From: Microgenomates group bacterium
GTDB lineage: Bacteria > Patescibacteriota > Microgenomatia > UBA12405
DNA: 42,299 nt
Direction of reading: 5' to 3'
Assembly (NCBI GenBank): GCA_049303675.1
Contig: JBAQNJ010000001.1
Coordinates: 956,001 to 998,299 of the forward strand
Under the pieces are notes generated by a model that was given only the letters and a program-made list of their open reading frames with translations, did no database searches and was not told where the DNA came from. The position numbers were made by a program, and so were the translations under genes. Positions 17,075-26,665 of the stretch are shown here, piece by piece. Each line of letters begins with the position of its first letter. Position 1 is the first letter of the stretch.

Positions 17075-17834
17075 TATTATATCCCCCAGCTTCTATCTCT
17101 TGAGCTAATTTTGGTCCGCCTTCTCTGACTATTTGTCCCTCAGCCATAATTACCACCCTATCTGCCGCCAAATACTTTAGGATACGATTATAGTGAGTAA
17201 TTACCAACACCCCTATTTTTCGTTGTTTGGCCACCGCCGCCACTGTCCTCGCTATCTTTTGCAGGGCATCCACGTCCAGACCCGAATCAATTTCATCCAA
17301 AATAATATATTTAGGATTAAATACTAAAAGTTGCAATATTTCTAGTTTCTTTTTCTCCCCCCCCGAAAAACCATCGTTTAGACCTCTTTTAAGTAGTTCT
17401 GGGTTTAGTTCCAATAGTTTTGCCTGTTTTTCTATCCATTCTCTAAATTCAAGTAATTTTGTCCCTATCTTAGGATTTCTTTTTTTATAAAGTTGATACA
17501 AAAAACTATTTACCGTCAGTCCGGCTATTGCCACCGGATATTGGTTGGCCAAAAATAATCCCTCATTTGCCCTCTCGTCTGGACTCATTTCATCCATTCC
17601 CACCCCATCAAGTTCTATTATGTTGCGTTTTTTATTTTTTTTATCTGTTAACTGTTCACTGTTCACTGTTAACTGATACTTAGGATGTCCCGATAGTGCA
17701 AAGGCTAGTGTTGATTTCCCCGATCCATTTGGTCCCATAATCGCCACTACTTCTCCTGCTTTGACCTCTAAGTCAATACCCTTAAGTATTTCTTTTTGGC
17801 CGACTTTTACCCTCAATTTATTTATTTTCAACAT
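17067..17834 (-). CDS. sufC: Fe-S cluster assembly ATPase SufC
   Basis: Contains Walker [10 protein letters not shown], the ABC signature FSGGEKKK and Walker [11 protein letters not shown]. Confidence 0.9.
17643..17677. repeat. Tandem heptad array, (A/C)ACTGTT x5, in frame in sufC
   Basis: Reads atctgtt aactgtt cactgtt cactgtt aactgat and encodes [11 protein letters not shown]. Confidence 0.9.
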
Positions 17835-17872
17835 ACTCCCACTATTTTAGTAGGAGTATGAGTAATTTACAA
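17832..17872 (-). promoter_or_regulatory. suf operon promoter overlapped by a 29-nt near-perfect palindrome
   Basis: On the minus strand: TTGTAA (17872-17867), a 17-nt spacer, TAAAAT (17849-17844), then the Shine-Dalgarno sequence GGGAG. The palindrome is catactcc-c-acta-ttt-tagt-a-ggagtatg (17832-17860) and covers the -10 box, the SD and the start codon. Confidence 0.4.
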
Positions 17873-17890
17873 GGATTTGATTCTTTACTG

Positions 17891-17963
17891 AGCCCAGAAA
17901 GGAACTTGAATCCTTGACCTTCCCCTTACCAAGGGGATGCTCTACCAACTGAGCTATCTGGGC
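17891..17963 (-). tRNA. tRNA-Thr (anticodon GGU)
   Basis: Manual cloverleaf: gcccaga/tctgggc, D arm gctc-agttggta-gagc, anticodon arm tcccc-ttggtaa-gggga, aggtc, T arm aagga-ttcaagt-tcctt. Confidence 0.9.
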
Positions 17964-17994
17964 GAATTGTTAATATTGGTACTGAATTATACTT

Positions 17995-18043
17995 GACCTG
18001 TCCGAAAGCTTTCGGACTGCTCTACCAACTGAGCTATCTGGGC
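17995..18043 (-). pseudogene. Truncated tRNA copy (5' acceptor to variable loop) with the palindromic anticodon arm
   Basis: The first 26 nt are identical to tRNA-Thr(GGU) (gcccagatagctcagttggtagagca). These are followed by gtccgaaagctttcggac and aggtc. There is no T arm. Confidence 0.6.
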
Positions 18044-18134
18044 GGTATCGATATTGTAACAAAAATTTTACTACTTACTCAGTCTAAGTAGCCTGTTTTT
18101 GTTATAATTCCTAAGTAAAGTCAAAATTAAATTT

Positions 18135-18156
18135 TATTTCGTAATTCGTAATTAAT
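18135..18156. repeat. Heptad array, TAATTCG family
   Basis: Reads tatttcg taattcg taattaa, just upstream of tRNA-Ser. Confidence 0.7.
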
Positions 18157-19690
18157 AATTTTTAATTGATTTTGGAGAGGTGCTCCGAATGGTAAGGAAC
18201 TTGTTTTGAAAACAAGCGCCAGCAATGGCATGCAGGTTCGACTCCTGTCCTCTCCGCCAACCAGAAAATGGGGGCGAATTTAGCAAAATTCGCCAGCCAA
18301 TATTGCCCTGAAATCCGAAATTTTTATCTTTTAAAACGAAGTTCGAGCCGATATTTTTTAAGAAACTTCTAAATTCATAAGGATTGTTTTTCTTTATTAA
18401 TATTTTGGCAAGGCTTGCGGATAAAATCATTTCTCTCATTTGTTCGAGCCAATTATTTCCTTTTGATTCAAAATCTTTTAAATCCTGCTCGATACCAGTT
18501 TGTTGATTGATAAATAAATTTTTCTTGGTGAGGTATTGTTGATTATCAATCAAATTATCGAGTCGGAAATTTAGCAGGTCATCAAGTTTTCGGTTAATTT
18601 CTGATTTTTGAGTTACCAGATTTTGAATCAATGGTTGGGATTGGATATTTGCTTGATTGGTTTCTTGGTCTAACTCTACCAACATCTTTTTTACCCAACT
18701 TTTCGGCAAAGAAACTTTTTGAATCTTGGTTTTGATTTGGTCTATCAATTCCTCCTCTCGTAAATATTTTTCGGGACAATTACTTTTCTTTTTAGTACAG
18801 CGATAATAGTTATGTCCTTTTTGGGTTTCGGCGGTTATCAGGCAACCACACCCGCCACATCTCATTAGTCCCGAAAAAATAAACTCGTGTTTTCGTTGCC
18901 GATGTTTTTTGCCTCGGTTATTCATCACCTCTGCCACCAAATCAAAAAGTTTCTTAGAAATAATTGGCTCATGAACTCCTTTATACAATTCACCATTAAA
19001 TCGAATCAGTCCGTAATAAATTGGGTTTTGTAACATAAATTGGACACGGGATTCTGATAAAGTTTTATCTTGATAACTTTTAAGGTTTGACTTAGCGAAA
19101 AATCCGGCGATACCTTTGAGGGTGCAATCGCCAGTCGAGTACATTTCAAATGCCTTTTTGATTAGTTTTGCTTTGGGAATATCAATATCAATTCCTTTGG
19201 TTTTACGATTATTGACATAACCAATCGGAGCAAAAGACGGCCATAAACCATTCCTTAGTTTTTGTCTGATTCCTCGCCGGATATTTTCGCTTAAATTATC
19301 AACATAATATTTACTCTGACCAAAGGCAATATTTAACATAAACTTGCCTTGTGGGGTTGAGTCAAACCAAAAAGTAGGAAACTTTAAATCAAGAATTTTT
19401 CCCGTGTCCAATAAATAAATGATTTTCCCGCCATCAATTGAGTTTCTGGCCAATCTATCAGGGTGCCAAGCCAAAATGCCCTGTGCTTCGCCTTTTTCCA
19501 TTCTCTCAATCATTTGATTAAAAACAATCCTTCCGGGTTTCTTGGCAGTTTTTGCCTCGGTGAACGAGGCAACGATTTCAATTTTTTGAATTGTGGCAAA
19601 TTCTTTTAGCTCAGCAATCTGATCACCAATACTTTTTATTTGTCTTTCTTCACTGTCGGTTGATTTTCTAGCGTATAAAAAGTATTTCAT
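18152..19690 (-). CDS. Large serine recombinase (integrase); the last ~60 codons read through the att arm and antisense tRNA-Ser
   Basis: Has the N-terminal resolvase catalytic motif YARKSTDSEERQ, a recombinase domain, and the zinc ribbon CGGCGCLITAETQKGHNYYRCTKKKSNCPEKY. Confidence 0.9.
   Translation of the reverse strand: MKYFLYARKSTDSEERQIKSIGDQIAELKEFATIQKIEIVASFTEAKTAKKPGRIVFNQMIERMEKGEAQGILAWHPDRLARNSIDGGKIIYLLDTGKILDLKFPTFWFDSTPQGKFMLNIAFGQSKYYVDNLSENIRRGIRQKLRNGLWPSFAPIGYVNNRKTKGIDIDIPKAKLIKKAFEMYSTGDCTLKGIAGFFAKSNLKSYQDKTLSESRVQFMLQNPIYYGLIRFNGELYKGVHEPIISKKLFDLVAEVMNNRGKKHRQRKHEFIFSGLMRCGGCGCLITAETQKGHNYYRCTKKKSNCPEKYLREEELIDQIKTKIQKVSLPKSWVKKMLVELDQETNQANIQSQPLIQNLVTQKSEINRKLDDLLNFRLDNLIDNQQYLTKKNLFINQQTGIEQDLKDFESKGNNWLEQMREMILSASLAKILIKKNNPYEFRSFLKNIGSNFVLKDKNFGFQGNIGWRILLNSPPFSGWRRGQESNLHAIAGACFQNKFLTIRSTSPKSIKNY
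18174..18259 (+). tRNA. tRNA-Ser (anticodon UGA), long variable arm, encoded CCA
   Basis: Acceptor ggagagg/cctctcc, anticodon arm cttgt-tttgaaa-acaag, variable arm cgccagcaatggcat, T arm gcagg-ttcgact-cctgt, then g-cca. The D stem is imperfect. Confidence 0.85.
18254..18337 (+). repeat. attL-side arm: 84-bp perfect inverted-repeat partner of 19715-19798
   Basis: I compared the reverse complement base by base and found it identical over 84 nt. It contains the internal hairpin ggcgaatt/aattcgcc. Confidence 0.95.
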
Positions 19691-19696
19691 TTTTTT

Positions 19697-19948
19697 AAGC
19701 CCGCATTTGGCCCAGTTTTAAAAGATAAAAATTTCGGATTTCAGGGCAATATTGGCTGGCGAATTTTGCTAAATTCGCCCCCATTTTCTGGTTGGCGGTG
19801 TGCATTCGAAAATATTCGAACAGATTTTCAAAATTTATAATGACGGGCGGAACTCGCCCCCCTCCGATTTCCGCCCGATGGAAAGTGAGGATTTCAATAA
19901 AACTGCCAAAATATCGGCTCGAACTTCTTTTGGGCCAAATGCGGGCTT
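19697..19948. repeat. 18-bp inverted repeat (aagcccgcatttggccca / tgggccaaatgcgggctt) enclosing the internal att-like site
   Basis: The arms lie at 19697-19714 and 19931-19948. The right arm is followed by a T-run, and the left arm is preceded by a T-run on the plus strand (an A-run on the minus strand). Confidence 0.9.
19715..19899 (-). repeat. Internal inverted attP-like composite site (arm shared with attL + core + arm shared with attR)
   Basis: 19715-19798 is the reverse complement of 18254-18337. 19792-19899 is the reverse complement of 24851-24958. The two share the core ttggcgg (19792-19798). Confidence 0.9.
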
Positions 19949-20033
19949 TTGAAAAAATGATAAAAAATACTGACATAATGCTAACTATAGTATGTAGAAC
20001 TAAAGTTAGCAAGTGGTTATAATAATCCGCATA

Positions 20034-20255
20034 ATGAAAAAACAAATATTAGTAAAATTCGGACAAAGTGTTAGACAAGAAAGAGAGAAACAGGGGTTGT
20101 CACAGGAGGAGTTGGCTAACAAGGCCAAAGTACACCGAACTTACATTGGAATGATTGAAAGGGCTGAGAAAAATATTACTCTGGCTAATATCGAAAAAAT
20201 CGCTAATGCTTTAAAAATGAAGATTAGTAACCTACTAAAACAAGATGAAGATTAG
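20034..20255 (+). CDS. XRE-family helix-turn-helix transcriptional regulator
   Basis: GLSQEELANKAKVHRTYIGMIERAEKNITLANIEKIANAL is a typical Cro/C1 HTH. The ORF track starts at 20013, but ATG 20034 (MKKQILV) is more likely, with TATAAT at 20018-20023. Confidence 0.85.
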   Translation: MKKQILVKFGQSVRQEREKQGLSQEELANKAKVHRTYIGMIERAEKNITLANIEKIANALKMKISNLLKQDED

Positions 20256-21690
20256 CCAATTATTTAAGTTAGACAAAACCCAGTTTGAACTTGATTTTGT
20301 TGATGTGGATATAGAACATGATAATTGGTTGTTTCTCGACCCTTTTTTTATTTCGACACGAAATGATCCCTGGTCGGTAGATGCAACGAGAGTTATTAAA
20401 TCTTTTTTTCAGTACATCATAGATTTGACAAAATCCGGAAATGTTAACCAAGCTAAGGGCTACTTTACTCATTTGAACGAACCAAACGAAACCTGCTTGG
20501 GAATGTCAAAAGGTAACCCCAGGGGGAATGGTGTTGGAAATGATAACGCTGAAAAGATTTTTGATAGCTTGTTGACTAGTAAAGCTATGGAGACCGGATT
20601 AGTAGAAAACCTAGAAGATTCTGCAATTTTTATTGACGGAATTGCTAGAGATAAGGTATCTGACGTCACAACAAATATAATCAGACGTAATTTAATCGAA
20701 TATACAAAAAATCAATGTGATCTATGGGGAATACCAATTACAAATAATTGTCCGTCTGGGTTCTATTGGAACCAAAATTCTAAAAAGTGGGATCAGTCCT
20801 ATACAGAAAGGTTGGTAATTAACAATAAATTGTTTCTACTTGTACCCAAGAATTCGGTTACATTTTATAAGGATTATATCGACCAAAAATACTATCAACA
20901 TTATGTTCTAAATTTTCTTCAAGATGAACACATGAAGAACAATAGTCCTTTAGTTCAGCATAGGAAGCTAAAAGACGGAACAATCCATAGTTTTGTTACC
21001 AAGAAAGACATTAAAGAAAAAGATTCACCTTTTTCCAAGGACCTCTTAAGAGAATTTACACGTAAACATCCTGATATATTCGCGAAATTTAGAAATGAAA
21101 AAAAGGGATCAGTCAAACCTCTAAGCAATGAGCAGCTAACTAACATAAGTCTTAATGAAGTCGTCGAATATTTAGTTAAGTGTCTAGATGAGATACGACC
21201 CGGAGGTGACGAAGCCTCCAAATATCATAGATTAATGATTGGAATCTTAGAACTAATTTTTTATCCACATCTAACAAACCCAATAAAGGAAAGAGAGATA
21301 AACGAAGGAAGAAAACGAATCGATATTGCAATGGATAATGCCGCAACAAACGGTTTTTTTCATCAACTACATGATATTCACAAGATATCTTCCAGGTTTG
21401 TTTATATCGAATGTAAAAACTATTCGGATGATCCAGAAAATCCTGAATTAGATCAGCTATCGGGAAGATTTTCCGTAAACACTAGCAATTTTGGCATATT
21501 AGCTTGCAGGGTGGTAAATAATAAAAAACTTATGACTCAAAGGTGTATTGATCTCTATAAACAAAAAAAGGAGTTGATCATCGTATTTGACGATGGGGAA
21601 ATAAAAGAAATGTTGAACCACTTACTAACAGATTCATCCTATATAGATTCCTGTCTTTGCAACAAAAGAAGGGAAACAGAACTTGCATGA
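20245..21690 (+). CDS. 481-aa protein with a C-terminal PD-(D/E)xK-like nuclease motif; N-terminal region unknown
   Basis: GRKRIDIAMD ... FVYIECKNY fits the D...(D/E)xK pattern of the restriction-endonuclease fold. It overlaps the XRE gene by 11 nt. No methyltransferase is nearby. Confidence 0.55.
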   Translation: MKISQLFKLDKTQFELDFVDVDIEHDNWLFLDPFFISTRNDPWSVDATRVIKSFFQYIIDLTKSGNVNQAKGYFTHLNEPNETCLGMSKGNPRGNGVGNDNAEKIFDSLLTSKAMETGLVENLEDSAIFIDGIARDKVSDVTTNIIRRNLIEYTKNQCDLWGIPITNNCPSGFYWNQNSKKWDQSYTERLVINNKLFLLVPKNSVTFYKDYIDQKYYQHYVLNFLQDEHMKNNSPLVQHRKLKDGTIHSFVTKKDIKEKDSPFSKDLLREFTRKHPDIFAKFRNEKKGSVKPLSNEQLTNISLNEVVEYLVKCLDEIRPGGDEASKYHRLMIGILELIFYPHLTNPIKEREINEGRKRIDIAMDNAATNGFFHQLHDIHKISSRFVYIECKNYSDDPENPELDQLSGRFSVNTSNFGILACRVVNNKKLMTQRCIDLYKQKKELIIVFDDGEIKEMLNHLLTDSSYIDSCLCNKRRETELA

Positions 21691-21755
21691 TTTTTATTGC
21701 AGCCTTTCATAGTCCACGGTGATTAAATATTATATTCGTGACATAATACGTAAGA

Positions 21756-22760
21756 ATGAAATATTCAAATAGACTTGGCGAAATCAGTAACGAGCAACTA
21801 CAAAAGGCTTTAGATAAATTAAAACTTGGGAAATTTGTAAAAGCAGAACCGATAGGATTTGGTAATTTTGGCCAAAATCTTTTTCTAACGAGTGATAAGG
21901 GTGAGTTTGTATTGAGAGGTAAGCCCCATTATCCGTGGCAATTCCCAAGTGAACAATTTATGGCCAATCTGTTTCATGAAAACACTAAAGTTCCGGTACC
22001 TTGGCCTTATTTAGTTGATGGGGATATGGGTATTTTTGGTTGGAGTTATTGCATTATGCCAAGACTTCAAGGATTGCAACTTAAAGATAAGGCTGTTTAC
22101 GATCAATTGCCTTTGAAAGATAAGCTTGAAGTAGCCCAAGCTTTGGGGGAAAACTTAGCCGAAATGCAAAAACTTACCTGGGAATTCAGTGGTAAGTATG
22201 ATTTGGAATCAAGAACAATAAAACCTTTAGAAAAACCATGGGATCAATGGGTTATTGATTTCATTGACGACTTGGTATCTAAAAGCGCGACTTACAGCGA
22301 CAAAACTCCCAAGAAGGATGTGGAATGGATAAATCAGTTAATTGAGACTGGGAAGGAAGCACTACAAGCCCCATTTACGCCAACCTTTGTGATGCATGAT
22401 TATCAAATTAGTAATATGGTGGTTGATAAGGTAAATGGTAAGTGGCAAGTAACTGGACTTTTTGACTTAATGGAAAATTATTTTGGCGATGGTGAATCAG
22501 ACCTAAGTCGGGTATATGTGGCCTACGCTGAGGAAAATGAAACTTTAGCCTATGCATTTTTAAATTCTTATCTATCTAAAATGAAAGTAAGACAAGGATT
22601 TGAGAAGCGATGGCCAATTTACATGATTCTTGATCGAATCGTGGTGTGGGAATGGGCTCAAAGAAACGGGAAATGTTGGTGGAAACAGGAGTACACATTT
22701 AGAGAATGGGTAGAAGGCAATACTTTACTTGACGTTAAGAGATTAATAATCAAGAAATAA
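21756..22760 (+). CDS. Phosphotransferase (APH/CotS-like kinase fold) family protein
   Basis: FVMHDYQISNMVV (catalytic loop-like) and GLFDLMENYFGDGESDLSR (Mg-binding D plus the GDxxxDL motif) resemble aminoglycoside/choline kinase-type enzymes. Confidence 0.7.
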   Translation: MKYSNRLGEISNEQLQKALDKLKLGKFVKAEPIGFGNFGQNLFLTSDKGEFVLRGKPHYPWQFPSEQFMANLFHENTKVPVPWPYLVDGDMGIFGWSYCIMPRLQGLQLKDKAVYDQLPLKDKLEVAQALGENLAEMQKLTWEFSGKYDLESRTIKPLEKPWDQWVIDFIDDLVSKSATYSDKTPKKDVEWINQLIETGKEALQAPFTPTFVMHDYQISNMVVDKVNGKWQVTGLFDLMENYFGDGESDLSRVYVAYAEENETLAYAFLNSYLSKMKVRQGFEKRWPIYMILDRIVVWEWAQRNGKCWWKQEYTFREWVEGNTLLDVKRLIIKK

Positions 22761-22764
22761 ATAT

Positions 22765-23712
22765 ATGGATCAACAAATATTTATGAATAATATTAGCCCA
22801 AAACAAATAATTACTGATTTTTCCAATAAAAGAAAAAACCCTGTGTTGTTTTTAGATATTAAGGAAGTCGGTAAAAATGTTGCATTATTAGTATCCGAAC
22901 TGTTAAAAGGTAAATTTTTTGATTCTCTCGATGTAGTCTTGCAAACCCCAGGTGGAAATATAGATGCTGCTTTTTTAATTGCAAAATTAATTAGAAAAAG
23001 CACTAAAAACCTCACAATTTTTGTGCCTTTGTATGCTAAAAGCGCAGGAACATTGATCTGTCTGTCGGCTGACCATCTTTTGTTAACTGATATATCAGAA
23101 CTAGGCCCGCTAGACACACAAATATTTGAACAACAAGATGGCGGGCAATCGCAATATGTATCCGCTCTAAACGGGTTTAAAGCCTTGGAACAGGTGCAAC
23201 TGCATTCAATTGAAACTCTCGATATTACAACGAAGCTCTTACTTTCAAAAAGTTCAATGAAGATTTGTGAGGCTGTAGAACTGGCTTCCGATTTCTGCGG
23301 AAAAACTAGTGGAAAACTGTATCAGAAACTTAATCCGGCAAAAATTGGTGAGTATGCAAGGGCGTTAGAAATTGGTGAATCGTATGGAGTCACGATACTT
23401 AATAAGTATTGTAAATGGGATAGACAAAAAGCAGAAATGACTGTAAAAATTCTGGTAAAGCAGTATCCATCACACGAGTATGTAATTGATCTTGAGGAAT
23501 TAACTGACTTGGGAATACCCGCAGAACTTATTTGTGACGAACTTGTTGATTCCGTAAAAATATTAAGGAATTTGATGTTACAATCTGCCGAGACACAAGT
23601 AGAGCTAATTGAGCCAACAACGAATCAAAATACTACTCTACCAAATACTACCCCACCTGTCTCTATTAGTGGTAATATTAATATAGATGATAATGAAAGA
23701 TTGGCGAGATAA
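22765..23712 (+). CDS. ClpP/SDH-fold (S49-like) serine protease family protein
   Basis: LQTPGGNIDAAFLIAKLIR...VPLYAKSAGTLICLSADHLLL...GPLDTQ resembles the SDH family Clp-fold serine proteinases (from memory). Confidence 0.65.
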   Translation: MDQQIFMNNISPKQIITDFSNKRKNPVLFLDIKEVGKNVALLVSELLKGKFFDSLDVVLQTPGGNIDAAFLIAKLIRKSTKNLTIFVPLYAKSAGTLICLSADHLLLTDISELGPLDTQIFEQQDGGQSQYVSALNGFKALEQVQLHSIETLDITTKLLLSKSSMKICEAVELASDFCGKTSGKLYQKLNPAKIGEYARALEIGESYGVTILNKYCKWDRQKAEMTVKILVKQYPSHEYVIDLEELTDLGIPAELICDELVDSVKILRNLMLQSAETQVELIEPTTNQNTTLPNTTPPVSISGNINIDDNERLAR

Positions 23713-23934
23713 AAACTTAACAAAAGTAAGAAACAGTAAGACAGATTCGGTGAGAGATGTTTTTAAGAGAGAAATACTAAATACCAGAATAGTTATTTCG
23801 GGAATTCTCAGAGAGCAAGACGATAAATATCGTCAAGAAAATATTGTGAATGGTAGTATTAAGTCGCCACTAAGTTGTATTTGAATTTGTCATTATAAAA
23901 TTAGGAACAAAGTTTAATAGGGTATAATTTATCT

Positions 23935-24183
23935 ATGACTTCCAAAAAAATAGCAACAATTTTATTAGTCGTTGGTATAGTTGGGGCTTTGAATAACTCA
24001 ACAGCCTTATCAAATGGAGGAATCGGGGCTTTATCTTTATTTATCGGCTCAATTTTTGGTGCAGTATTGGGTTCAGATATAGGTCGATTAATTACAATGT
24101 TAGTTGATATTATTTGTAGAGCCTCACTTATTTTCTTTATTTTAGCCGCCATTTACTATTACAAATCGAAAAAAGAAATCTAG
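23935..24183 (+). CDS. Small membrane protein (2-3 TM segments)
   Basis: An 82-aa hydrophobic ORF. I prefer it over the antisense ORF 23901-24152 because it is co-oriented with the rest of the island. Confidence 0.45.
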   Translation: MTSKKIATILLVVGIVGALNNSTALSNGGIGALSLFIGSIFGAVLGSDIGRLITMLVDIICRASLIFFILAAIYYYKSKKEI

Positions 24184-24236
24184 TTAATACTTCAATTTTT
24201 GAAAACGAATCGTAATAATAGAGGTATAATCGCATT

Positions 24237-24779
24237 GTGAATGCTAATTTAAACACAAAGGTTAAACCCCTATTTAATTGCTTAAAAGGCTATTATGAAA
24301 CAGCACCTGAATCAGGATACTGTAGACATCCACCAATTTGGGAAAACTACAATAAGACAATTGATGAACTAAATAATATAACTTCCGTCAATTACGACAG
24401 ATTTAAAATAACTAATATAAGAGATGATGCAGGTGATCAAGTTGTAGATGTAAATGAATACAGACAAAAATTATTAGGTTTGGTCAAATATCTCGAGGGT
24501 GAATATGATTTTTTTGAGGAAACAAAAAGCAGCTCGGGTGTAATCTTTAATAATAATCAGACTCAAAACTTACATTTAACCATTGTTTTAGAGTTTCAAA
24601 CTTTGGTCGATAAAAAATTATATGGCTCAAAACTCGATGAACAAGAAAAGGGTTATTTGGAGAAAATTAAAGAGCTATTGCCTGGAATAAAATCAATAAC
24701 AGAAATAGTCAATTTAATTCTTTCCTTGGGTAAGACAATGGGATTGACCTTAGACCAGATAACAAAATTGTTTACATAA
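24237..24779 (+). CDS. Hypothetical protein (GTG start)
   Basis: A 180-aa ORF, the last cargo gene. No motif recognised. Confidence 0.45.
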   Translation: MNANLNTKVKPLFNCLKGYYETAPESGYCRHPPIWENYNKTIDELNNITSVNYDRFKITNIRDDAGDQVVDVNEYRQKLLGLVKYLEGEYDFFEETKSSSGVIFNNNQTQNLHLTIVLEFQTLVDKKLYGSKLDEQEKGYLEKIKELLPGIKSITEIVNLILSLGKTMGLTLDQITKLFT

Positions 24780-24850
24780 AAGCACGAGAAGTAATATTTA
24801 TTTTTTGTTATTACATAAAAAAATTTGCCACAATTAAAAAATTGAAATCG

Positions 24851-24958
24851 TATTGAAATCCTCACTTTCCATCGGGCGGAAATCGGAGGGGGGCGAGTTC
24901 CGCCCGTCATTATAAATTTTGAAAATCTGTTCGAATATTTTCGAATGCACACCGCCAA
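24851..24958 (+). repeat. attR-side arm: 108-bp perfect inverted-repeat partner of 19792-19899
   Basis: I compared the reverse complement base by base and found it identical. It contains the hairpin gggcggaa/ttccgccc and the ttcgaa-atattt-tcgaa repeats. Confidence 0.95.
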
Positions 24959-24959
24959 A

Positions 24960-25355
24960 ATGAAAAACAATCTCCCCATCCGTGCAGTCAAAGCTGTTAT
25001 CCGAAACAAGAAAGGCGAGATATTATTGCTTCAGAGAAATCCCCAAATATCTCTCCAAGATAACTGGGACCTTCCTGGAGGGCTAGTCGAAACTGGAGAA
25101 AACTTCAAGAATGCTCTCATCCGCGAAGTAATGGAAGAGTTGAATCTAACAATCAACATCACCAAACAAGCAGGCAAGTGGCATTTTATCCGATTCAAAG
25201 ACAAGCAATTAGTACATGTCCAAAACTACCACTGTACTGTTAACAGTGGCGATATTCAGCTCAGTGAAGAACATCACGACTATAAATGGGTAAACCCTTC
25301 TGACATTCGAAAGTATTTAGTAAAAGACGACAGCTTTTATACTGCTATAAACTAG
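24960..25355 (+). CDS. NUDIX hydrolase
   Basis: Contains the Nudix box GGLVETGENFKNALIREVMEELNL. The ORF track start at 24945 lies inside the att arm, so ATG 24960 (MKNNLPIRAV) is preferred. Confidence 0.85.
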   Translation: MKNNLPIRAVKAVIRNKKGEILLLQRNPQISLQDNWDLPGGLVETGENFKNALIREVMEELNLTINITKQAGKWHFIRFKDKQLVHVQNYHCTVNSGDIQLSEEHHDYKWVNPSDIRKYLVKDDSFYTAIN

Positions 25356-25361
25356 GCACTA

Positions 25362-25706
25362 TTATCTCCCTACCACTTTTCCCACCACCATCGACAACAC
25401 GCTCATCACCACCGAAGCAATTAGAGTAGTGGCAAACGAATTACTCTGGACCCCTGGCACGATTTTGATAGCAATCTGCAGTACTATTGCATTGATAACC
25501 AGCGTAAACAAGCCCAAGGTTAGGATATTTATCGGTAGTGTCAAAATCAACAGTATCGGTTTTACCAATATATTAAATAACCCCAAGACCACCACCAATA
25601 CCAACGCCCCTACAAAATCCCCCACTATAAATCCGGAGACAATATAAGCAGTTGCCAAAATAACCAATGCTCTAAAAATCCAACTGGTCAATATCTCCAT
25701 AGACAA
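25362..25706 (-). CDS. DUF360 / holin-4-like small membrane protein
   Basis: A four-TM 114-aa protein (GALVLVVVLGLFNILVKPILLILTLPINILTLGLFTLVINA). The family call is from memory. Confidence 0.6.
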   Translation of the reverse strand: MSMEILTSWIFRALVILATAYIVSGFIVGDFVGALVLVVVLGLFNILVKPILLILTLPINILTLGLFTLVINAIVLQIAIKIVPGVQSNSFATTLIASVVMSVLSMVVGKVVGR

Positions 25707-25757
25707 TTATATCTAATTTCCGCTACATCTTCCATCGATAATCTGCTAACCTTAATC

Positions 25758-26309
25758 GTGAATATTCATCGTCAAAAACATCACAATACTATTTTATTTA
25801 TCCTATTTTTTGTCGGTTTTATTATCTTCTCCCAGAGTTCACTTTTTATTAGCTTTAGTAAAATTCTCGACAGCTTCCCCTTTTTTGGAGCAATACTTGC
25901 CGGCCTGTTATTTGCCTCAACTTTTACGGCCATCGCCGGTGGCCTAATCTTAATACATTTGGCCATCATCATTAATCCCCTCGCCCTTGTCTTACTGGCC
26001 GCCCTCGGAGCAGTGACCTTTGATACCTTAATATTTATTTTTTTTAGAAAACACGTCAGTGCTCACATTAGTGATATCTACTACGACCTTCGTCATCATG
26101 ACCATTTCAAAAAAATCACCCACACCAAATACTTTGCTTGGACCCTACCGGTTATTGGTGCTCTCATTATGGCTTCACCCTTGCCTGATGAATTAGGTAT
26201 TAGCCTCCTTGGACTATCTTCAACCAATATTTCTCGCTTCTTACTAATTTCGACACTCTCTCATTTTGTCGGTATTAGTTCTGTCATCGCCGGTTCCATA
26301 CTGCTCTAA
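25758..26309 (+). CDS. Hypothetical polytopic membrane protein (GTG start)
   Basis: A 183-aa hydrophobic ORF. Confidence 0.5.
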   Translation: MNIHRQKHHNTILFILFFVGFIIFSQSSLFISFSKILDSFPFFGAILAGLLFASTFTAIAGGLILIHLAIIINPLALVLLAALGAVTFDTLIFIFFRKHVSAHISDIYYDLRHHDHFKKITHTKYFAWTLPVIGALIMASPLPDELGISLLGLSSTNISRFLLISTLSHFVGISSVIAGSILL

Positions 26310-26320
26310 AATGTTACTAT

Positions 26321-26353
26321 TAACTGTCGACTGTAAACTGTTATCTGTTAACT
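26321..26353. repeat. Degenerate heptad array of the ACTGT family (intergenic)
   Basis: Reads taactgt cgactgt aaactgt tatctgt taact, upstream of hpf. Confidence 0.7.
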
Positions 26354-26359
26354 ATAATA

Positions 26360-26665
26360 ATGAATATTCAAATCATCGGCGACAACTTTAATGTTTCTGA
26401 TAACACTCGTCACTTAGTTGAGGAAAAAATTGGCTCTCATCTCGATAAACTGCTCACCAAGTTTGATCCAGAATTTCATTCTGCCCTAATTCGCATTCAA
26501 AAAGATAAATTTGATAATTATCTCGTCAACTTGGACATGAATTTACCTGGCAAAGAACACATTTATGCCGATACTACCCACAAAATACTCGAATCAGCCT
26601 TAATTGACCTCTCACAAGAGGCTGAGGTTCAAATCCAAAAATACAAAGAAAAACTTCATTCATGA
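26360..26665 (+). CDS. hpf: Ribosome hibernation promoting factor (short HPF/RaiA)
   Basis: MNIQIIGDNFNVSDNTRHLVEEKIGSHLDKL is a typical S30AE-family N-terminus. Confidence 0.8.
   Translation: MNIQIIGDNFNVSDNTRHLVEEKIGSHLDKLLTKFDPEFHSALIRIQKDKFDNYLVNLDMNLPGKEHIYADTTHKILESALIDLSQEAEVQIQKYKEKLHS

Follow-up and report, generated by a model that had tools for sequence, protein, structure and literature searches.

The Island and Its Cargo Genes

The 42,299-nt stretch of DNA analysed here (the window; contig JBAQNJ010000001.1 of assembly GCA_049303675.1, from a Microgenomates group bacterium) contains an island of approximately 6.7 kb that is integrated at the 3' end of a tRNA-Ser gene and carries a large serine recombinase gene together with a series of co-oriented cargo genes. 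Positions are those of the window throughout, and loci used for comparison are cited by handle (L108 and the like). An earlier note on this DNA, made from the sequence alone, described six co-oriented and tightly spaced ORFs (open reading frames) riding on a recombinase island, and the ORF list bears this out, including the 11-nt overlap of the first two genes, the 66 nt between the second stop and the third start, and the position of the fourth gene directly after the third (4-nt spacer). Its assignment of a Cro/C1-type helix-turn-helix (HTH) protein, an APH-fold phosphotransferase and a Clp/SDH-type protease was likewise borne out by Pfam (HTH_3 1.5e-15, APH 1.3e-14, SDH_protease 8.4e-16). 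A seventh co-oriented ORF of 65 aa, at 23687-23884, was absent from its list. The cargo genes are as follows.

20034-20255, + strand: putative restriction-modification (R-M) controller (C) protein, 73 aa (PADLOC Control_protein, PDB relatives, Pfam HTH_3)
20245-21690, + strand: predicted DUF8370 (PF28123) nuclease, 481 aa (PADLOC, PHROG, Pfam, fold match)
21756-22760, + strand: APH-fold phosphotransferase (kinase), 334 aa (Pfam APH)
22765-23712, + strand: SDH/NfeD-type ClpP-fold serine protease, 315 aa (Pfam SDH_protease)
23687-23884, + strand: small protease partner, 63-65 aa, basic, isoelectric point 9.8, core motif DVFKREILNTRIVIS
23935-24183, + strand: membrane protein, as the earlier note had proposed, 82 aa, three hydrophobic segments by hydropathy
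24237-24779, + strand: soluble acidic protein of a conserved unnamed family, 180 aa

Cargo as a Mosaic of Four Cassettes

The six genes had been put forward as one candidate defence or addiction module. Comparison with sister islands, which carry subsets of these genes, instead divides the cargo into four cassettes, defined as such because the islands L108, L052, L011 and L012 break sharply at the cassette boundaries.

About 19957-21690: cassette A, C gene and DUF8370 nuclease gene
21691-22755: cassette B, stand-alone APH-fold kinase
22756-23889: cassette C, SDH/ClpP-fold protease and its partner of about 60 aa
23890-24836: cassette D, membrane peptide and 180-aa protein

Sister island L108 matches window positions 19986-21684 (C-box, C gene and DUF8370 gene) at 91% nucleotide identity, continues with glyoxalase, AdoMet_dc, DUF2000 and cupin genes, and then enters the shared right-end sequence; cassette A and the island right end are present, without the kinase and without the protease pair. 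L052 shares the recombinase end and an internal recombination site up to position 19956, beyond which it carries a different HTH gene and a 224-aa HNH endonuclease (Pfam HNH, HNH_repeat), and its match to the window resumes at precisely 22756, 9 nt ahead of the protease start. The similarity of L011 begins at this same nucleotide, and L011 and L012 match 22756-23889 (protease and 65-aa ORF) at 87% identity before passing directly into the right repeat, the 82-aa and 180-aa genes being missing from both. Judged from these sequence alignments, the cargo is a set of at least four independently swapped cassettes and not one system. The whole is probably best explained by regarding 19957-24836 as the variable cargo bay of a serine-recombinase island, in which four cassettes assort independently; the host genome is probably that of a member of the Patescibacteria, about 1 Mb in size.

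A single integrated anti-phage or abortive-infection system comprising all six or seven genes is the least probable of the alternatives considered here. In its favour, the close spacing and common orientation of the genes would allow all of them to be transcribed from the C-controlled promoter described below. However, three sister islands carry different subsets with sharp breakpoints, no kinase is found near protease homologues, neither protease nor kinase is found near DUF8370 homologues, and the 82-aa and 180-aa proteins are absent from all related loci examined.

The Controller Gene and Its Predicted Operator

Cassette A opens with the C gene, whose longest ORF begins at GTG 20013 and which overlaps the nuclease gene that follows it. 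Its product matches the PADLOC Control_protein model (2.5e-24), and its best solved relatives are the controllers C.BclI (3.4e-14), C.AhdI (3.6e-12) and that of Esp1396I (2e-7). The recognition helix contains HRTY. An operator-like element lies just upstream.

19983-20006, + strand: C-box-like operator, AACTATAGT-ATGTAG-AACTAAAGT

The element consists of the palindromes AACT-AT-AGT and AACT-AA-AGT(T), with centres 15 bp apart and a TGTA-containing spacer between them. This pattern occurs once in the window, compared with 0.00 occurrences expected from 100 shuffles, and the part of the operator that is present in L108 is identical. The published C-box reads GACT-N3-AGTC-N4-GACT-N3-AGTC, with a TGTA spacer accompanying HRTY-type C proteins and a 15-bp spacing of centres (PMC2175313). 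A TATAAT hexamer at 20018-20023, 10 nt before the ATG of the C gene, fits a leaderless C-gene transcript. Similarity to characterised C proteins, tandem C-boxes and a downstream endonuclease gene are all found at this locus, and the HTH protein is, by sequence, an R-M controller protein.

In C-controlled type II R-M systems (PvuII, BclI, AhdI, Esp1396I) the HRTY helix, the tandem C-boxes with TGTA and 15-bp spacing, the overlap of the boxes with the promoter, the C gene's leading position, its overlap with the endonuclease gene and the PD-(D/E)xK endonuclease all resemble what is predicted for cassette A. Cassette A differs from them in having no methyltransferase, in its AACT/AGTT half-sites and 2-nt inner spacers, and in belonging to a nuclease family, DUF8370, that is usually without a C gene.

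The DUF8370 Nuclease

The 481-aa protein matches phrog_27295 (1e-94) and the PADLOC PDC-M36A models PDLC04597 (9e-40) and PDLC04598 (2.1e-16). A plain Pfam scan gave no match, and assignment to PF28123 (DUF8370) was made via a precomputed Pfam family. Relatives are numerous, with 3356 at E<=0.001 among the 8000 best word-sharing candidates scored; those listed are about 480 aa long, share approximately 50% identity and come from Bacillota, spirochaetes and Patescibacteria. The C-terminal RIDIAMD...YIECK motif had been proposed to fit the PD-(D/E)xK fold, and loss of the D/ExK residues in homologues was named among the observations that would speak against the proposed module. Residues D360, E389 and K391 are invariant in 42 DUF8370 homologues, and the proposal is further upheld by structure comparison. 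AlphaFold2 models had pLDDT values of 88.6 for the whole nuclease and 88.7 for the C-terminal domain alone, and the best Foldseek match of the isolated C-terminal domain is the EcoT38I restriction endonuclease (4.2e-4, probability 1.0, TM 0.54), followed by Cap4, VC1899, Nt.BspD6I and FokI. The fold search with the full-length nuclease returned nothing below 0.1, the significant match being obtained for the isolated domain only. Among BFVD viral models the best matches are a 'restriction endonuclease' and a type IV Mrr domain protein (0.008-0.02), and PDB sequence searches with the nuclease, as a single sequence and as a profile, found nothing. From its modelled fold, the C-terminal domain is taken to be a Mrr/PD-(D/E)xK-type nuclease.

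The N-terminal region, of about 310 residues, is found separately or with other C-termini on small plasmids of Bacillus, Acinetobacter, Rhodococcus and Listeria (e.g., L087, 2500-3456). Its occurrence on plasmids apart from the nuclease indicates that the N-terminal domain is modular.

The earlier note had remarked on the lack of a methyltransferase partner, and no DNA methyltransferase family matched any island ORF. Nor did the 36 remaining ORFs of the window yield one among their 25 top-scoring Pfam families, and DUF8370 relatives show no conserved methyltransferase neighbour. Across 25 other DUF8370 loci there is no conserved neighbour of any kind, no kinase and no protease. The surroundings of DUF8370 genes include many defence and mobile-element functions. 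On a Bacillus mycoides plasmid the gene has TOPRIM and UvrD-helicase genes on one side and integrase and McrBC genes on the other, Gabija-like genes also adjoin relatives, and neighbours on viral contigs include AbiU2, SIR2, TIR, HsdR-like, integrase, resolvase, P2-type replication, portal and terminase genes. A tblastn search of a GenBank phage set with the nuclease gave no match, despite the matches to PHROG and to IMG/VR contigs. The PDC collection comprises 145 untested computational candidates that were discovered inside BREX, DISARM or type I R-M loci (10.1101/2024.01.29.577857). The match to PDC-M36 is strong and full-length for gene A, but the window matches gene A only, and the link to a C protein is seen in the window lineage only; apart from the C protein, no other island protein matched a PADLOC model. 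A search of the literature on DUF8370 or PDC-M36 found nothing relevant.

Type IV Mrr-like systems offer a parallel in some respects, as they too are solitary nucleases that join a Mrr/PD-(D/E)xK domain to a large N-terminal domain, have no methyltransferase, and are carried on mobile elements and in defence islands. The N-terminal domain of DUF8370 proteins, however, matches no known modification reader, and any dependence on modification is conjectural. We conclude that cassette A is a controller-regulated, methylase-less restriction-type nuclease, a variant of C-regulated restriction, for which a role in defence is plausible. Because no methyltransferase is present and most DUF8370 relatives are partnerless, we infer an intrinsic sparing of host DNA by the nuclease, through modification dependence (type IV-like) or through gating by its N-terminal domain. 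In this model the C protein, a PvuII-type controller, would bind the two tandem palindromes overlapping its own promoter, acting as an activator at low concentration and as a repressor at high concentration. The controlled transcript, which is probably leaderless, would also carry the overlapping nuclease gene, and the nuclease would cut DNA via its C-terminal Mrr/PD-(D/E)xK domain.

The coupling of regulator and nuclease suggested by the earlier note thus stands in part: in the window and in L108 the two genes form a co-inherited restriction-type unit, but the C gene is absent from 24 of the 25 other DUF8370 loci, L108 being the exception. The same comparison bears on the suggestion of addiction, under which the HTH protein and the nuclease would be a type II toxin-antitoxin pair stabilising the island. 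A small HTH gene in first position with an 11-nt overlap would suit such a pair, as would a weak similarity to HipB/HigA-type antitoxins (TIGR03070 3.8e-11, well below the cut-off). This is nevertheless a very improbable reading, as the HTH protein is much closer to R-M controllers and has a controller-type operator, and the absence of an upstream HTH gene from nearly all other DUF8370 loci, where these genes normally stand alone, would be intolerable for a toxin.

The Protease and Its Small Partner

The protease of cassette C exceeds the Pfam SDH_protease (PF01972) cut-off (58.3 bits against 31.3), with residues 55-122 only being aligned, and reaches 74.9 bits against the NCBIfam Clp_like_SDH model (NF047768), which is under the 250-bit cut-off; by these scores it belongs to a divergent SDH subfamily. 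Its nearest solved structure is the NfeD 1510-N protease (1e-3). Residues K92, S93, K139 and H147, and also D117, are invariant among homologues, and by analogy with the Ser-Lys dyad of NfeD 1510-N, Ser93 and Lys139 are the probable catalytic dyad. A scan of genome contigs with the protease sequence yielded one distant locus only.

The partner of the protease is not the kinase but the 65-aa ORF missed in the earlier note, which overlaps the protease stop by 26 nt. Matches in tblastn searches with this ORF lie directly 3' of protease homologues, and in 33 further distinct loci the protease gene is succeeded by a co-oriented ORF, 51-94 aa long, that bears [FY][KR]xEIxx[TS]RIx[VI]S. The loci without the motif are mostly those with the most distant proteases; in L021, L023 and L048, where the proteases are closer, a small ORF in the same place loosely resembles it. 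The partner has no match in Pfam. In Pyrococcus, the stomatin encoded beside the NfeD protease gene is cleaved by this protease. Cassette C resembles NfeD (1510-N)/stomatin operons in placing a ClpP-fold protease, here with a probable Ser-Lys dyad, beside a partner gene, but its partner is a soluble basic protein of about 60 aa in place of a stomatin, its protease lacks a membrane anchor, and the context is one of restriction operons and mobile elements. The partner may be inferred to be a substrate or a regulator of the protease. Searches of the literature on the protease-partner pair, on PF01972/DUF114 and on SDH-family protease names found nothing relevant.

Genes for R-M or nuclease functions lie directly upstream of the protease, and co-oriented with it, in at least 12 of 30 non-redundant loci as well as in the window. 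Those in the 30 loci encode N6_N4 methyltransferases (4), ResIII (3), HsdS (2), the HsdR N-terminus (2), D12 methyltransferases (2), Eco57I (2), HNH proteins (2) and, in single cases, C5 methyltransferase, HindIII, CfrBI and AIPR. L006 has the operon order C, methyltransferase, CfrBI restriction endonuclease, protease, partner, and L020 and L034 have type I HsdR upstream. About half of the protease loci have unrelated or unknown genes in this position (e.g., UvrC, a tRNA synthetase, a dehydrogenase). The gap to the upstream co-oriented gene is below 60 nt in 23 of 35 protease loci, and no promoter-sized spacer precedes the protease. We read cassette C as an autonomous unit of two genes with a tendency to collect at the 3' ends of restriction operons. 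It would have no promoter of its own and would plug into the 3' end of an upstream operon, usually one for restriction or a nuclease, being co-expressed with the genes there. Its own role in defence is possible.

These arrangements raise the question of whether cassettes A and C cooperate. The nuclease and the protease pair would in that case work together, the kinase alone being an interloper, and the protease would either tune or relieve restriction by proteolysis, for instance by degrading the endonuclease or controller when the host genome is at risk, or serve as an abortive back-up when restriction is blocked. This is possible but rather unlikely. It would account for the position of the pair directly behind varied R-M and nuclease genes, for gaps too small to house a protease promoter, and for the C-type HTH genes standing first in the operon in the window, L052, L006 and L060. 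There is precedent for a back-up inside an R-M locus in PrrC, which lies within EcoprrI (cited in 10.1101/2024.01.29.577857). Against it, the range of upstream partners (type I, II, IIG, HNH, DUF8370, AIPR, deaminase) is too wide for a specific physical contact, housekeeping or unknown genes take their place in about half of the loci, and the protease occurs in none of the 25 other DUF8370 loci, with L108 carrying the nuclease without it. A functional tie of the protease pair to restriction is accordingly advanced here only tentatively, and the preferred reading remains that of independent cassettes.

Cargo without a defence function is a further, improbable, alternative, in which the kinase would confer antibiotic resistance and the protease pair would regulate the island life cycle in the manner of ImmA/ImmR. 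Distant SDH proteases do have integrases as neighbours in a P2-like phage and in a filamentous-phage-like plasmid, and in a Klebsiella phage one adjoins an XRE/ImmA immunity region. Sister islands keep the protease pair while the nuclease is swapped, and a kinase relative is clustered with ABC_tran, APH and MFS genes (see below). Cassette A nevertheless has clear hallmarks of restriction, the protease pair also stands behind chromosomal R-M systems with no recombinase nearby, and the island end in L108 has no protease pair.

Two further contexts were seen among protease homologues. In L034 (2615-4621) a reverse transcriptase gene (RVT_1) lies inside the type I R-M operon directly 5' of the protease-partner cassette. 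More distant SDH-type proteases (L065, L070, L072-L074) follow a 461-490-aa ThiF (E1-like) protein and a 112-128-aa protein, and some precede a 523-561-aa deaminase; the small partner is absent. By gene content this appears to be a different, conflict-system-like context.

The Kinase

The cassette B kinase scores 55 bits against Pfam APH (PF01636; cut-off 23.2), and its catalytic residues, D215 and N220 of the HxDxxxxN motif and the downstream Asp D237, are invariant. The solved structures nearest to the family profile are APH(2'') enzymes (4e-6) and hygromycin-B 7''-O-kinase (5.5e-4). The protein resembles these aminoglycoside phosphotransferases, APH(2'') and APH(7''), in its fold, in the intact catalytic Asp, Asn and Mg-binding Asp, and in being a mobile stand-alone gene, but the similarity is weak and at profile level.

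Coupling of the kinase to the protease, as the earlier note supposed, is refuted, because protease loci contain no kinase and kinase relatives occur in unrelated contexts. No kinase match was found in 77 protease loci, 58 of them non-redundant, and thus none in the 39 non-redundant ones for which 1 kb or more of upstream sequence was available. Among kinase relatives whose surroundings could be read, the closest (86% identity, L083, 1217-2203) has a gene with a Shedu SduA_C nuclease domain 2 nt downstream, and the kinase family itself may travel with defence genes. Another relative, in L084, is clustered with a further APH gene, MFS genes and a double ABC_tran gene of ABC-F type, and a third, in L085, is flanked by TBP and MCM in the genome of an archaeon. 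Cassette B is regarded as an unrelated small-molecule kinase, possibly antibiotic-modifying.

The kinase-protease pair, the toxin-antitoxin pair and the single operon-system were all rejected on comparative evidence.

The Membrane Peptide and the 180-aa Protein

The two genes of cassette D form an orphan pair. The 82-aa protein has no family match in Pfam, NCBIfam, PADLOC or PHROG and no homologue among the related loci examined. The 180-aa protein has no match in Pfam, NCBIfam, PADLOC or the PDB; its family nevertheless extends to 293 representative clusters (E<=1e-3), and the majority of the 150 matches listed are about 180-190 aa long and aligned nearly over their full length. The family is too diverse for a pattern scan. 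In the loci examined, it was not found beside protease or DUF8370 homologues.

TATAAT hexamers precede the starts of three cargo genes by 6-10 nt, namely the C gene (20018-20023), the 82-aa gene (about 23923-23928) and the 180-aa gene (about 24225-24230). Their positions hint at leaderless transcripts and at separate promoters for the 82-aa and 180-aa genes.

The Island and Its Integration Site

The placement of the cargo on a recombinase island, as first described, is supported by a serine recombinase gene and integration at tRNA-Ser. The features that define the island are as follows.

18174-18259: tRNA-Ser gene, adjoining the recombinase gene
18152-19690, - strand: large serine recombinase (Pfam Resolvase, Recombinase, Zn_ribbon_recom; phrog_95 integrase 5e-75)
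18254-18337: attL-like left junction, with the tRNA-Ser 3' end, core CCGCCAA and P' arm
19715-19899: complete internal attP-like site, inverted, with P arm, core CCGCCAA and P' arm, the recombinase gene on one side and the cargo on the other
24851-24966: attR-like right junction, with P arm, core CCGCCAA and chromosomal sequence

G+C content is 0.32-0.36 across the island compared with approximately 0.39-0.43 in the flanks, and the GC skew of the island is reversed relative to them. The core CCGCCAA is common to the attL-like, internal attP-like and attR-like sites. A perfect 84-nt inverted repeat (100%) brackets the recombinase gene, and a 116-nt inverted repeat of 97% identity brackets the cargo. 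Since the independent contig L052 (310-510) shows the same layout, the inverted internal site is not an assembly artefact. The inverted-repeat layout suggests that segments may be inverted or exchanged; the sister contigs were examined for an inverted form of the cargo, and none was seen.

The 3' end of the recombinase ORF runs past attL into the antisense of tRNA-Ser (18152-18259). The codons for its last 35 or so residues lie in junction and tRNA sequence, so that excision would alter this end of the protein. A search with Rfam over 17800-25500 found two tRNAs only. The tRNA-Thr(GGT) gene has an exact 27-nt partial duplicate (17938-17964 and 18018-18044) 80 nt from the tRNA, which may be the scar of another integration beside the tRNA-Ser site. 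At the other end, the longest ORF of a NUDIX gene (24945-25355) starts inside the right junction repeat, with an in-frame ATG at 24960. In sister contig L011 (1414-1675), which may lack the NUDIX gene, some 170 nt less separate the right repeat from the next gene in common. Runs of an (A/T)CTGTT(A/C)A unit are found on both sides of the island (17641-17674 and 26306-26353), and a 28-nt element occurs in two 82% identical copies (25741-25768 and 26343-26370) upstream of genes starting at 25758 and 26360; these repeat runs and elements may be shared regulatory sites of the host.

Standing of the Cassette Reading and Its Implications

Several observations weigh against the reading of the cargo as independent cassettes headed by a restriction-type unit. 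The sampled loci are mostly short metagenome contigs and were not randomly drawn, and the repeated occurrence of the protease pair behind restriction genes means that cooperation of cassettes A and C, were it to occur, would soften the independence of the cassettes. With regard to cassette A, the fold match of the nuclease is modest, with a TM of 0.54 and a single match below 1e-3; the N-terminal region of about 300 aa, which the earlier note had rightly called large and unrecognised, has no match; PDC-M36A has the status of a computational candidate only; and a cognate methyltransferase could be encoded elsewhere in the genome, outside the window. The half-sites of the operator depart from the published C-box, as described above. 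The role of the C protein is assumed by analogy, and with no methyltransferase it has no obvious timing job to perform. Of the defence module originally proposed, what stands is a plausible defence role for cassette A, with its PADLOC candidate and defence neighbours, and a possible one for cassette C; what does not stand is their union in a single module.

The tempting six-gene system is replaced by a map of four cassettes with exact breakpoints. An untested PADLOC candidate, the DUF8370 protein PDC-M36A, is tied to what would be a textbook controller circuit, providing a handle for expression. The most novel piece of the island is cassette C, a protease-micropeptide pair found repeatedly behind restriction genes, both in Patescibacteria and in other phyla. 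A rather unlikely proposal joins the two: an undescribed, promoter-less protease-partner cassette would function with restriction operons of several kinds (type I, II, IIG, HNH and DUF8370), and controllers would also serve solitary type IV-like genes. Should the pair modulate or back up restriction, the commonest bacterial defence would gain a new kind of accessory, and controller circuits, if so employed, would extend to solitary (type IV-like) restriction genes. For the episymbionts themselves, with genomes of about 1 Mb, the mosaic suggests that small integrative islands carry swappable defence cargo.

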